Positions 1 through 3,000 of a stretch of 4,237 nucleotides of DNA are shown here, in pieces (the stretch's first letter is position 1; every line of letters begins with the position of its first letter). Origin of the DNA: a virus (Duplodnaviria; Heunggongvirae; Uroviricota; Caudoviricetes); the IMG/VR virus record IMGVR_UViG_2531839675_000021. One strand, given 5' to 3'. The position numbers were made by a program.

Positions 1-3000
1 TCAAATGACCAGTTTTTTCCATTCCTTACCGCGTGCGTCGTTGTAAATATCGGTCATTTTTTGATTCGAATGGCCTAGCAAAATTTTGGTATCAACCCCC
101 TGCTCTCTGAACAATCGCTCTGATAAAGATCTCTGCTCATGGAAAGAGGGAGGGGTGCCATTAGCACGCCAGTTGTAATCCACAGAATCCCGGGCTTTTT
201 TAAATGCAACGGTTAATGTTGCTGGCTTAACCATCCCGCCGCGCTTAGCTGTCCCTTTCGCGTGATGGTGGTGCAATAGCCACGGACTAAGAACGCAATC
301 GCGGCAGGATGACACCACATCATCCAGGGTGAGATTTAATTTATCGCAACGCAGAGCCAGAGGGATGGCAATCCGGGTTCCTGTTTTTTGCTGTTCGACA
401 TGAAGATAACCATCCCGGATATCCGAAAATTGCATTTTGCAAATATCTGAAAGGCGCTGGCCTGTCATCAGTGCCAGCAGCATACCGCGCTGTAAAAAGT
501 AACCATCCTTTTCCGCTGCGTTATAAATCATCATCCACTCATCAAAAGTCAGTCGCTGTCTTGATATCCGCACCTGCGGTTTTTTTGCCGATTCTGCAGG
601 GTTAAAGCCTGGCGGGACATCGCCCGTTTGCTGAGCTTCCCGGAAAACATCGATCAGTACTTTCCTGAAAATTTGTCCCATTCTGTTATGTCCTCTGGCC
701 TTGTACTCTTCCAGTACTGATACCACATCTTTTACGGTTATGGCATCTAACGGTCTGGTGCCAAAACGTTCATCAAATACCCTGAGAGGGGCCGCTTTCT
801 GTTTCAGCGTGTTGAGTTTGATCTCGCCGTTTTCATATCTTTCCTGTTGAATTTTTCTGTAATTATTCAGAAAAATGGTAACGGTTGATGAACCGCCGGT
901 ATCACTAATAATTTTCTCCTGCAGACTGAGCATTTGTTCCATTTGCTGCCGGGCAAGACGGCTGTTCGCTTCTGCTGCAATAGTTTCTGCCAGTTTCTGG
1001 TCAATACTGCCGAGACCGTGATTTTTGCCTGTTATGGGATGCCTGTAACGCCAGTAAACTTTGTTATTTCTTTTGTCAAAATACGGAGATAATCCCGGAA
1101 CATCGGTTTTATATTTTCGCGGGCGCGCCATCTTCCAGTATCCTCTTCAAAGCAGGGTGATCTGTGGCGATCACCTCCGGCTTGTTTACCATTCCGACAA
1201 AGCGAGCTTGCGGATCCACTCGCCAGCGTCTTCCAACTTTTTTGGGGAGAGGAAATATCATTCCGGCTTTAGCGTATTTACTTAACGTACTCGGAGTTGG
1301 GACCGGTTCACTGAATTCCTCTTTTGCCCACTCAGTGAGCAGAATAAGTCTTGCCATGAGCGTCGTTCGCTAATCATGGTCGCCGCCACTATAGCTGGTG
1401 GGCAACGACCGGGGTTGAACATTAAAAATCAGCCTGATTCGGGATCAGTTTTTGCCAGATAACTGAAACGTATTTTGCCTGGTAACGGGCGTCATCAAGT
1501 GCATTATGGCGCTCACCTTCGAATGGAATAGCCGTTCTGGCATCGAAGTCTATGGCTTTCCCCAGCTCAACGATTGTGCGTACATCGCGATCGTTGTAGT
1601 AACGCCACGGGCAGGGGATCCCCTGCCGTTCGTATGAACGGCGCAAAATCGTGTTGTCGAAGTTGGCTCCATTTCCCCAGACCTGAACAAAAAATTCACC
1701 GGAGTTTTCGTCGATAAATTCCCGCAATTGTAACAGTGCATCATCTAACGGGATTTCATCGGTCATAATGGCAGATTGCGCTTCGCGTGATTGCTTAAGC
1801 CACCATTTAATGGTGTCCCTCGCCGTGTGCTTTCGTGTTGTGTGCCTGCTTTTTACCACGTCAGGCGAGGTGGTCCCCGTTATTCCCCAACAACAAGGAT
1901 CTTGTTAATCTGGATATCCCCAACAACAATAAGAGTATTGAATGTGATCGCTGAATTAACGGCAGCAATGACGGCTATTCGTGAAACCGCCCAGATTGCA
2001 AAACTAATGAACGAGGCAAAAACTCAAGCTGAAGTAAATGCGGCTATTGGTGAACTGAACTCAAAGCTTGCATCTATTCAGCGCGAATGCGTGTCTCTCG
2101 TTGAGCTGGTGGGCACTTATCAAGAAATAAATGCTTCTCTCAAAGCTAAAATTGCAGAATTTGAAAACTTTGAGGCTCAGACGGAAGGTTATATCCTTAG
2201 CCAACTTGAGTCGGGAACTTTTGTGTACTCGAAGGAGGTAACCGTGAACGGCGGCAGCATAATCATGCATCTTTGTCCAAAATGTTTTGGACAAAAGATA
2301 GTATCGATACTTCAGCCATTCCCGGTTAGAGAATATGAATTTTTTCATAAAAGCAGGTGCCTGTACTGTGAAAATCAGTTTCTTATGAATAAAAATCCGG
2401 ATTACGTATCACCTCCATCTATTGAAGAGTTGGCCAGAAAACTGAACGGCAATCTGTAGATTTTTACTGTTATGGATATCCAGATTGTTAAAGAGCATGC
2501 CGGATGCTTGCTTGTGTCCGGCGCGTGTGCACCACTCTCCCCCCGTGGAGGATTCCTTAATTACCAGATTTCATTAGTCAGAGTTTCTTGCTAACCAGCG
2601 ACGCGCGCCAGATTCGGTTTTAAACGTTTTGCTTTTGGTATACGTCATCGCGGTGAACGTGCCGTCCTGGTTGGGAAACACGCCGCACACCAGAGATTCG
2701 TTGTTGCCAAGATCAAGAGTATCCATGCTGACCTCATATCCCCTTAACGCCGGGGTAGCGGAACAAAAACCTGCTGCATAGTTAAAGTTGAACCCTGCCG
2801 TCATGTTCTTACGCCTCGGGCTGGCTACTTAATCCCTGACCACTGCCGGGTAACTCTAGGTATTGCCCTGTATTGTGTGGGACGGGATGGGTTGGTATGG
2901 GAAAACTATAGGAAATGCCTAATTGCTTGTCAATAGGCTACGCCTAATGATTTGGGTGCGACCTAATAGGTGATGGTTTGTGGGAGAGGTAGTAGGAGTT

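Follow-up and report, generated by a model that had tools for sequence, protein, structure and literature searches.

A truncated exonuclease gene beside the integration module of a lambdoid prophage is a probable remnant of a 2.9-kb internal deletion

The window analysed here is a stretch of 4,237 nucleotides from a Caudoviricetes virus (IMG/VR record IMGVR_UViG_2531839675_000021) and carries, next to its excisionase and integrase genes, a short open reading frame (ORF) that resembles a DEDDh 3'-5' exonuclease and appears to lack its beginning (Table 1). How did this gene lose its 5' end, and does what is left of it have a function? We report that the ORF is very probably the non-functional 3' end of a large exonuclease gene of lambdoid prophages, that it was made by a deletion of approximately 2.9 kb, and that the deleted allele probably then spread between prophages.

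Table 1. Positions in the window of the exonuclease remnant, its junction and the neighbouring features
Feature	Position	Strand	Remarks
Integrase, lambda-type with Arm DNA-binding domain, ompW-site type	1-1131	minus	Pfam PF09003 and PF00589
Excisionase	1109-1357	minus	Pfam PF07825
Module boundary	1412/1413		9 nt 3' of the exonuclease stop; ompW-type int/xis to the left, sequence common to prophages with other int/xis to the right
Remnant ORF	1422-1859	minus	145 aa, GTG start
Exonuclease-homologous part of the ORF	1422-1819	minus	last 132-133 residues and TAA stop (1422-1424)
Homologous crossover interval	1439-1819		joins the left end (ompW type) with the deleted early region (Sp6 type)
Exo III motif, H118-N-A-L-D-D123	1491-1508	minus	kept; H118 codon 1506-1508, D123 codon 1491-1493; invariant columns
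Exo II motif, WGNGANFD	1656-1679	minus	kept; D68 codon 1656-1658; invariant column in relatives' alignments
Deletion junction (GGTGTCCC/TCGCCGTG)	1819/1820		blunt; inside ORF codon 14
Non-homologous N-terminal stretch	1820-1859	minus	13 codons (MVKSRHTTRKHTA) and GTG start
In-frame TAA	1905-1907	minus	closes the frame upstream of the ORF
phrog_1244 gene	1944-2459	plus	171 aa; PGAP CDS in EDL933; oriented opposite to the remnant

The 145-residue ORF matched the Pfam profile PF16473 (Rv2179c-like 3'-5' exonuclease) with an E-value of 1.2e-46 and 159 bits (score cut-off 27 bits), and the family assignment is based on Pfam together with a fold search (see below). Residues 6-135 of the ORF correspond to positions 47-177 of the 177 positions in PF16473, and hence the first 46 positions, Exo I included, have no counterpart; in the PHROG 2082 profile the ORF covers only positions 685-823 of 823. 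Both the profile match and the alignment place Exo I, i.e. the D-x-E on beta1 that provides two of the four metal-binding carboxylates, outside the ORF, while alignment with relatives and a check of the codons confirmed that Exo II and Exo III are kept. We also looked for full-length members that start near the beginning of the ORF and lack the D-x-E; all full-length relatives open with M(N)HLMIDLETMG, that is with Exo I, approximately 50 residues ahead of the point where the homology of the ORF starts. A frameshifted upstream segment that might restore Exo I was likewise sought. A tblastn search of the whole window with three intact proteins of 814-823 residues gave no match to residues 1-669 (best E=0.38), and no D-x-E-containing strand showed up when 1820-2100 was translated in three frames. 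On the minus strand the predicted in-frame stop was confirmed as TAA. The original prediction of a 5'-truncated gene with two of its three motifs was, in these respects, accurate.

An AlphaFold2 model of a full-length relative of 186 residues (P0118; pLDDT 91) has the DEDDh fold and matched T4 DexA, RNase T, RNase AS and oligoribonuclease in a Foldseek search, with a TM-score of 0.8 against T4 DexA (8KEL/8KEN). In this model, beta1 (residues 3-10), which bears Exo I, is followed by beta2 (19-28), beta3 (33-42) and a helix (44-49). The homology of the remnant starts at approximately residue 56, such that residues 1-55 (beta1-beta3 and the first helix) are without counterpart, and mapping on the model leaves only beta4 and beta5 of the five-stranded core sheet in the ORF. 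Substitutions in Exo I kill activity in DEDD enzymes, e.g. Klenow D355A/E357A, the epsilon subunit of DNA polymerase III and RNase T. Lacking half of the four acidic metal ligands as well as three core strands, the product should be neither catalytic nor stably folded, and the remnant alone would thus not be a working DEDDh nuclease, as first suggested.

The intact parent is an "Exo VIII-type" prophage protein of 814-823 residues, consisting of a RecE-like middle region (40% identity to RecE 278-591) and a C-terminal DEDDh domain that occupies only residues ~642-813. The homologous part of the ORF represents residues ~691-823 of the intact 823-residue protein. Since the remnant is only the C-terminal end of such a protein, about 84% of the gene is gone (residues ~1-690), and the loss was therefore underestimated when it was taken to be the N-terminal third of an exonuclease; for the PF16473 domain by itself the missing fraction is 26%. 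Up to position 1819 the identity of the remnant is 100% with the ompW-site prophage PPompW_EH2246 and 99.3% with phage Tritos, and its DNA identity to other intact genes is 86.7-99%. Relative to intact copies there are 0-2 differences in 407 bp and no disabling mutations, as would be expected if the deletion were recent or paralogues had converted the gene, and this does not by itself prove neutrality.

In intact relatives the leftward early operon has the order dicB, DUF1482/ydfD-like gene, exonuclease, xis and int, with the DicF sRNA gene before dicB in some of them. The window conserves the xis-int side of this operon and has lost the dicB/DUF1482 side. DNA identity to the intact genes stops exactly at 1819/1820, within the interval of approximately 1815-1860 where homology had been predicted to end. 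Both flanks of this junction are collinear with two independent intact relatives, in which they are, however, 2,918 bp (strain JNE120393) or 2,954 bp (phage HannyBb) apart; the difference between the truncated and the intact state is one contiguous deletion. The comparison with intact prophages thus placed the breakpoint as foreseen and revealed a change of another kind, a loss of ~2.9 kb. The segment lost from the window comprises dicB and DUF1482 in JNE120393, and in HannyBb it includes DicF, which Rfam identified in this relative only. Rfam scans detected no RNA families in window positions 1350-3100 and only a sub-threshold match to STnc100 in the JNE120393 locus. Neither microhomology nor IS scars were found at 1819/1820, and the junction cannot be shifted in either direction since the base past each endpoint differs. 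The counterpart of 1820-1859 lies approximately 2.9 kb away from the exonuclease homology in the intact phages, and these codons are a fortuitous N-terminal extension of the ORF.

No single intact relative is equally similar to both flanks, with 86.7% identity on the left and 94.5% on the right relative to JNE120393, while relative to HannyBb the left flank is 99% identical and only 55 bp match on the right. Such values, and the strong mosaicism of the lambdoid prophages in these strains, could also be understood if an illegitimate crossover had joined the int-xis-exonuclease 3' end of one phage to the early/immunity region of another. We consider an origin from two parents unlikely, given that two independent intact genomes have both endpoints in collinear positions at a distance of 2.9 kb, which makes a one-step deletion the most parsimonious route, and that later homologous exchange accounts equally well for the uneven identities. 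A closer pre-deletion ancestor was searched for using a synthetic query across the intact right endpoint; 63 genomes were retrieved, all JNE120393-like (98.5% identical to the query) and none closer. Over the flanks, identity to the nearest intact relative is no more than 87-97%, and the direct ancestor was thus not found. Taken together, the truncation relative to intact orthologues, the defined junction and the collinear flanks identify the ORF, as far as sequence comparison can tell, as a pseudogene remnant left by an internal prophage deletion.

The loss of the N-terminus had instead been attributed to the insertion of the adjacent gene, referred to as an orphan. The 171-residue product of this gene has a coiled-coil N-terminus and a CxxC...CxxC C-terminus, and it is a member of phrog_1244 (E=1e-57) that recurs in unrelated phages, so the term orphan does not apply. 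A PADLOC scan of the protein gave no match, and Pfam returned only a sub-threshold coiled-coil match. An inserted gene that replaced the 5' end of an exonuclease of ~180 residues would agree with the distance of only 124 bp between the junction and the start of the phrog_1244 gene, and with the cassette-like nature of this gene: the block 1836-2496, which has inverted repeats on either side, also occurs in the unrelated phage PhiR29_1. However, the same gene (97% identical) and the same flanking DNA (1820-1943) coexist with an intact 814-residue exonuclease, DUF1482 and dicB in JNE120393, and likewise in 63 complete E. coli genomes, where the phrog_1244 gene is at the same place beside the intact exonuclease. 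Moreover, the junction is 16 bp outside the boundary of the cassette and the parent gene has 814-823 codons, not about 180. An origin by insertion is accordingly extremely unlikely.

The deletion that we favour would have been one illegitimate event of ~2.9 kb, without microhomology, with its left end inside the DEDDh domain past Exo I and beta1-beta3 and its right end ~124 bp upstream of the phrog_1244 gene. It removed ~690 exonuclease codons, the DUF1482/ydfD-like gene, dicB and non-coding DNA beyond dicB (with DicF in a HannyBb-type arrangement). The leftover frame is by chance open for 13 codons into foreign DNA, up to a GTG, and this gives the 145-residue ORF. The deletion allele does not kill the phage and probably spread between prophages by homologous recombination inside the retained 407-bp patch, which would explain why it is now located behind the int/xis modules of both the potC site (Sp6, O157:H7) and the ompW site (the window). 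One may speculate that losing the toxic dicB/DicF conferred a selective advantage.

The junction is present in 267 of 5,426 complete genomes, where it resides in the O157:H7 potC-site prophage; this prophage corresponds to Sakai Sp6 (PMC8190617). In four relative loci (L006-L009) ompW adjoins the window-type integrase. The match between the window and the O157 potC prophage begins only at 1413, and for Tritos and HannyBb, whose integrases are of a third type, it begins at 1414. At position 1438 the window and the ompW-type prophages have T (N141), the O157 potC prophage has C (S141), and from 1820 rightward the sequence is all Sp6-type. These transitions indicate that the window is a mosaic in which an ompW-type int/xis module is joined to an Sp6-type early region, with the crossover inside the remnant. 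The whole window is absent from every complete RefSeq E. coli genome (maximum coverage 67%) and its two halves are found separately inside single O157 genomes, as might be expected were the window or the junction an assembly artefact arising from the 407-bp repeat that several prophages have in common. The probability of such an artefact is close to nil. The junction occurs in 267 finished genomes, and at least 24 draft contigs, which come from separate assemblies and are up to 100 kb long, carry the exact 145-residue ORF in its ompW-int-xis context; these contigs vary in their downstream phage content and have a chromosomal flank diverged by approximately 0.8% from O157. The number of independent contigs and the divergence of their flank likewise led us to reject the idea that two O157 prophages had been misassembled.

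Could the fragment nevertheless be expressed and have a non-catalytic function, for instance by partnering the intact paralogous exonucleases of co-resident prophages in a dominant-negative or regulatory manner? The frame is open over 145 codons, its sequence is identical in 267 O157 genomes, intact paralogues are present in the same genomes (e.g. TR01), and a leftward early promoter-like site at 2933-2905 suggests that the remnant is probably part of a read-through transcript of the leftward early operon. On the other hand, conservation among clonal O157:H7 is uninformative, three of the five core strands are missing, and the native start codon and translation signals are lost. The start codon GTG 1859 is within the fortuitous, non-homologous DNA, and the G-rich stretch 15-19 nt upstream of it is beyond usable Shine-Dalgarno spacing; for the internal ATG 1766 no Shine-Dalgarno sequence was found. 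Furthermore, the short homologues are only heterogeneous remnants of 90-148 residues (at least 71% identical), almost all from Escherichia/Shigella and many flagged as partial, while homologues from other genera are mostly 184-195 residues long with Exo I, and a few are 138-150 residues. We therefore regard a function of the fragment as very unlikely, and the deleted, non-functional allele as the better reading. A still more specific version would be that low-level translation of the remnant, initiated at GTG 1859 or ATG 1766 in the read-through of the leftward operon, yields a product that poisons or modulates the intact paralogous exonucleases of co-resident prophages. RNase T and RNase AS act as dimers, and since the remnant keeps the C-terminal helices of a family with dimeric members it might bind to these paralogues. 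We give this scenario hardly any credence; if true, the "pseudogene" would be an inter-prophage interference factor.

The remnant is a real and ordinary pseudogene that is already known, as the NCBI PGAP annotation of O157:H7 lists the junction-bearing gene as a pseudogene, "incomplete; missing N-terminus". Many such defects have been documented in the pool of defective prophages of the E. coli O157 type, and taken alone this one has little significance. Its modest value is that of a precise marker: GGTGTCCC/TCGCCGTG uniquely marks one deletion. The tag is found behind two integrase modules, in no fewer than two host lineages, and it can thus serve as a tracer for module exchange among lambdoid prophages. 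Asadulghani et al. 2009 (PMC2669165) scored the general recombination function of Sp6 as defective and described the Exo VIII-type system as intact in Sp10 alone; they also report that Sp6 can still be excised and transferred to K-12. The remnant also shows that a prophage still able to excise and transfer can do without the large exonuclease, dicB, the DUF1482/ydfD-like gene and, if it was present in the ancestor, DicF.

Among known systems, the truncated "3'-5' exonuclease" pseudogene of Sakai Sp6 (EDL933_RS08260) has the identical junction, equivalent to 1819/1820. The Sp6 potC prophage is identical to window positions 1413-4237 except for the one base at 1438, and it has the same neighbours (the phrog_1244 gene, DUF1391, racR and ydaS/ydaT); it differs in having potC-type int/xis to the left of 1413 where the window has the ompW type, and in residue 141, which is S in Sp6 and N in the window. 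The exoD gene of the K-12 cryptic lambdoid prophage DLP12 (intD-xisD-exoD-peaD) is a similar object, a short exonuclease pseudogene by xis/int with another pseudogene directly after it. It was rejected as a homologue of the remnant (BLASTP E=6), presumably derives from a lambda-Exo-type gene, and the similarity is one of analogy only. The stand-alone DEDDh exonucleases of enterobacterial prophages (183-195 residues, Rv2179c/RNase AS-like and T4 DexA-like) share PF16473 and the invariant Exo II and Exo III residues with the remnant. They differ in having the Exo I D-x-E strand at the start and a full five-stranded sheet, whereas the remnant starts approximately 50 residues later. The intact PHROG 2082 exonucleases (Tritos TRITO_27, O157 TR01 WP_000048551.1 and the Sakai Sp10 type) are, like the remnant, located directly upstream of xis/int, and their last ~132 residues are 98-100% identical to it; in contrast to the remnant they have ~690 more residues, to which the RecE-like region and the Exo I half of the DEDDh domain belong, and the DUF1482/ydfD-like gene and dicB lie ahead of them, as does DicF in Tritos and HannyBb.

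Within the window, the left end of a lambdoid prophage (see the table), the 145-codon exonuclease ORF is a routine pseudogene remnant of a 2.9-kb deletion. Its match to Pfam PF16473 (Rv2179c-like 3'-5' exonuclease; E=1.2e-46) covers only positions 47-177 of the 177 in the profile. In other enterobacterial genera the aligned homologues stand alone, are 183-193 amino acids long (most such matches in the protein search: 184-195) and begin with M(N)HLMIDLETMG, i.e. the Exo I D-x-E motif, approximately 50 residues ahead of where homology starts in the window ORF (R14-D15-T16-I-K-W-W). 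Exo II (WGNGANFD, D68) and Exo III (H118-x4-D123) are kept, with D68, H118 and D123 in invariant alignment columns, and a TAA at 1907-1905 closes the frame upstream. In the AlphaFold2 model of a full-length relative (186 amino acids, mean pLDDT 91), strands beta1 (3-10, including D7 and E9), beta2 (19-28) and beta3 (33-42) and a helix (44-49) precede the start of the remnant at approximately residue 56, leaving the fragment only two strands of the five-stranded sheet. Searching the whole window by tblastn with three intact proteins, we detected nothing corresponding to their first ~670 residues, nor the frameshifted upstream Exo I segment that the original prediction had named as a refuting finding. 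Every factual element of that observation, i.e. the missing Exo I motif and beta strands, the retained motifs and the in-frame stop, is correct, and the end of homology, expected at approximately 1815-1860, was located at 1819 by alignment to intact relatives.

Coordinates of features in the window and of the intact exonuclease gene in related loci
Feature	Sequence	Position	Strand	Remark
Integrase	window	1-1131	minus	
Excisionase	window	1109-1357	minus	
Exonuclease remnant ORF	window	1422-1859	minus	Pfam PF16473
phrog_1244 gene	window	1944-2459	plus	171 codons
DUF1391 gene	window	2574-2726 (or to 2804)	minus	
RacR-type repressor gene	window	3042-3518	minus	
Cro/YdaS-like gene, then start of YdaT-like gene	window		plus	
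Promoter-like site	window	2933-2905	minus	11/12 matches
Promoter-like site	window	3586-3615	plus	10/12 matches
Intact exonuclease gene	L003 (phage Tritos)	928-3399		
Intact exonuclease gene	L006 (ompW-site prophage locus)	8422-10893		
Intact exonuclease gene	L005 (JNE120393 potC-site prophage)	2685-5129		

The best structural matches to the relative's model were T4 DexA (8KEL/8KEN, TM-score ~0.8), RNase T, RNase AS (Rv2179c) and oligoribonuclease, all DEDDh enzymes. DEDD exonucleases rely on the Asp and Glu of Exo I to bind the two catalytic metal ions, and activity is abolished when these residues are lost. A G-rich stretch 15-19 nt upstream of GTG 1859 is too distant to act as a ribosome-binding site, and none was found at ATG 1766. 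We infer that the fragment is most probably non-functional.

The loss is larger than the "N-terminal third" first suggested. Nor are the closest relatives enzymes of ~180 amino acids: the gene adjoining xis has 814-823 codons in phages Tritos and HannyBb and in two prophages, one at the ompW site of O157:H7 strain TR01 and one at the potC site of strain JNE120393. The DEDDh domain occupies only residues 642-813 of the intact protein (Pfam), and PHROG 2082, a profile of 823 positions, matches the window ORF at positions 685-823 only; the remnant therefore represents the C-terminal 16% of the intact protein. RecE 278-591 shares 40% identity with residues ~262-625, which explains the frequent annotation as exodeoxyribonuclease VIII, while the C-terminal nuclease is DEDDh and not the RecE nuclease domain. 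Remnants of other lengths are common for this gene: parts of it are matched by PHROG families of 114, 264 and 530 positions, and the protein search returned many Escherichia/Shigella proteins of 90-243 amino acids, many flagged "partial". The intact protein can be described as a hybrid of a RecE-like region, which includes a CxxC...CxxC stretch, and a C-terminal T4 DexA-like DEDDh exonuclease that stands where RecE has its nuclease domain; the gene is widely labelled "exonuclease VIII" although the catalytic domain differs. No recT-like gene adjoins it in the four loci examined.

The deletion point lies between 1819 and 1820. Prophage PPompW_EH2246 matches window 1-1819 at 100% identity, and Tritos and HannyBb match 1414-1819 at 99%; identity to all three ends exactly at 1819. 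From 1820 on, the window is collinear with DNA 2,918 bp farther in JNE120393 and 2,954 bp farther in HannyBb. The junction reads GGTGTCCC followed by TCGCCGTG, and since the bases past each endpoint differ there is no microhomology. Missing are ~690 exonuclease codons, a DUF1482/ydfD-like gene, dicB and non-coding DNA past dicB; the HannyBb equivalent additionally holds the DicF sRNA gene. Codon 14 spans the junction and is AGG in the window vs CGG in the intact gene, Arg being kept by coincidence, and the GTG start and the 13 codons ahead of codon 14 are read from unrelated DNA. Within the deleted region of the JNE120393 locus, just upstream of dicB at HannyBb's DicF position, a sub-threshold Rfam match to the sRNA STnc100 was noted (5563-5780, minus strand; 33 bits, E=2.5e-5; gathering threshold 47).

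That the exonuclease 5' end was replaced when the adjacent gene was inserted, as the original prediction proposed, is not supported: in JNE120393 the equally placed gene (97% identity) co-occurs with an intact exonuclease gene, the DUF1482 gene and dicB, and a synthetic query across the undeleted right endpoint identified the intact arrangement in 63 complete genomes. Nor is the neighbour an "orphan"; it is a phrog_1244 member, and in PhiR29_1, an unrelated phage, it lies beside the gene for the cI repressor. In Rac, the equivalent opposite-strand slot, with the early-left operon on one side and the repressor on the other, is taken by sieB, and the phrog_1244 gene is a candidate superinfection-exclusion or defence moron; PADLOC gave no match for its protein. 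The N-terminal half of this 171-residue protein is coiled-coil, and its C-terminal half contains CxxC...CxxC. A 26-nt imperfect inverted repeat (1907-1932 and 2461-2486; 13-nt perfect core AATCTGGATATCC) encloses the gene nearly exactly, one arm ending 12 nt ahead of the start and the other beginning 2 nt past the stop. Conservation of both arms extends to JNE120393 and PhiR29_1, the block common to the window and PhiR29_1 being 1836-2496. Judged from sequence, the block resembles a portable moron cassette whose ends are inverted repeats.

Farther right, the DUF1391 ORF is readable as 76 amino acids from ATG 2804, with the Pfam match at residues 28-75 of this form; PGAP gives only the 50-residue form from ATG 2726, where the window's strongest Shine-Dalgarno is found. 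A 26-nt inverted repeat (arms 2927-2952 and 3567-3592, 88% complementary) flanks racR, each arm holding the TTGACA of an outward-pointing, near-consensus promoter-like site, and further TAGGC-containing repeats are present at 3541-3560 and 3592-3611. These flanks look like putative twin pL/pR-type promoters with common RacR operator sequences.

Genome annotation and the literature already record the truncation as a defect of the O157 prophage Sp6. Counting single alignments over at least 80% of window 1300-2500, which must cross the junction, we found it in 267 of 5,426 complete E. coli genomes, and all 30 of the junction-spanning matches listed lie in the potC-site prophage of O157:H7-type strains; 4,135 of the 5,426 have a match to some part of the same interval (xis 3' end, remnant, phrog_1244 gene). 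The potC prophage is Sp6 of strain Sakai (PMC8190617), for which Asadulghani et al. (PMC2669165) scored the general recombination function as defective, and PGAP annotates the remnant in O157:H7 strain EDL933 as a pseudogene ("3'-5' exonuclease; incomplete; missing N-terminus"), so the defect was on record. Sp6 has kept the ability to excise and to be transferred to K-12 (Asadulghani et al., PMC2669165); evidently, the deleted genes are dispensable for both.

The whole window was present in none of the complete genomes (best coverage 67%). Left of 1413, 9 nt past the exonuclease stop codon, it carries the ompW-site int/xis module, which differs from that of the O157 potC prophage. Position 1438 is T (N141, the ompW-type allele) in the window vs C (S141) in Sp6, and from 1820 rightward the window is wholly Sp6-type; it is thus a recombinant with the crossover at 1439-1819, inside the remnant. 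An assembly artefact was rejected: at least 24 contigs (up to 100 kb) encode the exact 145-residue protein, with the gene order ompW-int-xis-remnant-phrog_1244-DUF1391-racR, the full-length window aligns to these loci at 99.95%, and their chromosomal flank differs by ~0.8% from O157 TR01, indicating another lineage. The module boundary at 1412/1413 is sharp, and at least three different int/xis modules (ompW-type, potC-type and Tritos/HannyBb type) adjoin the same exonuclease 3' end. This conserved end appears to serve as a homology patch for module exchange, and such exchange is classical lambdoid mosaicism.
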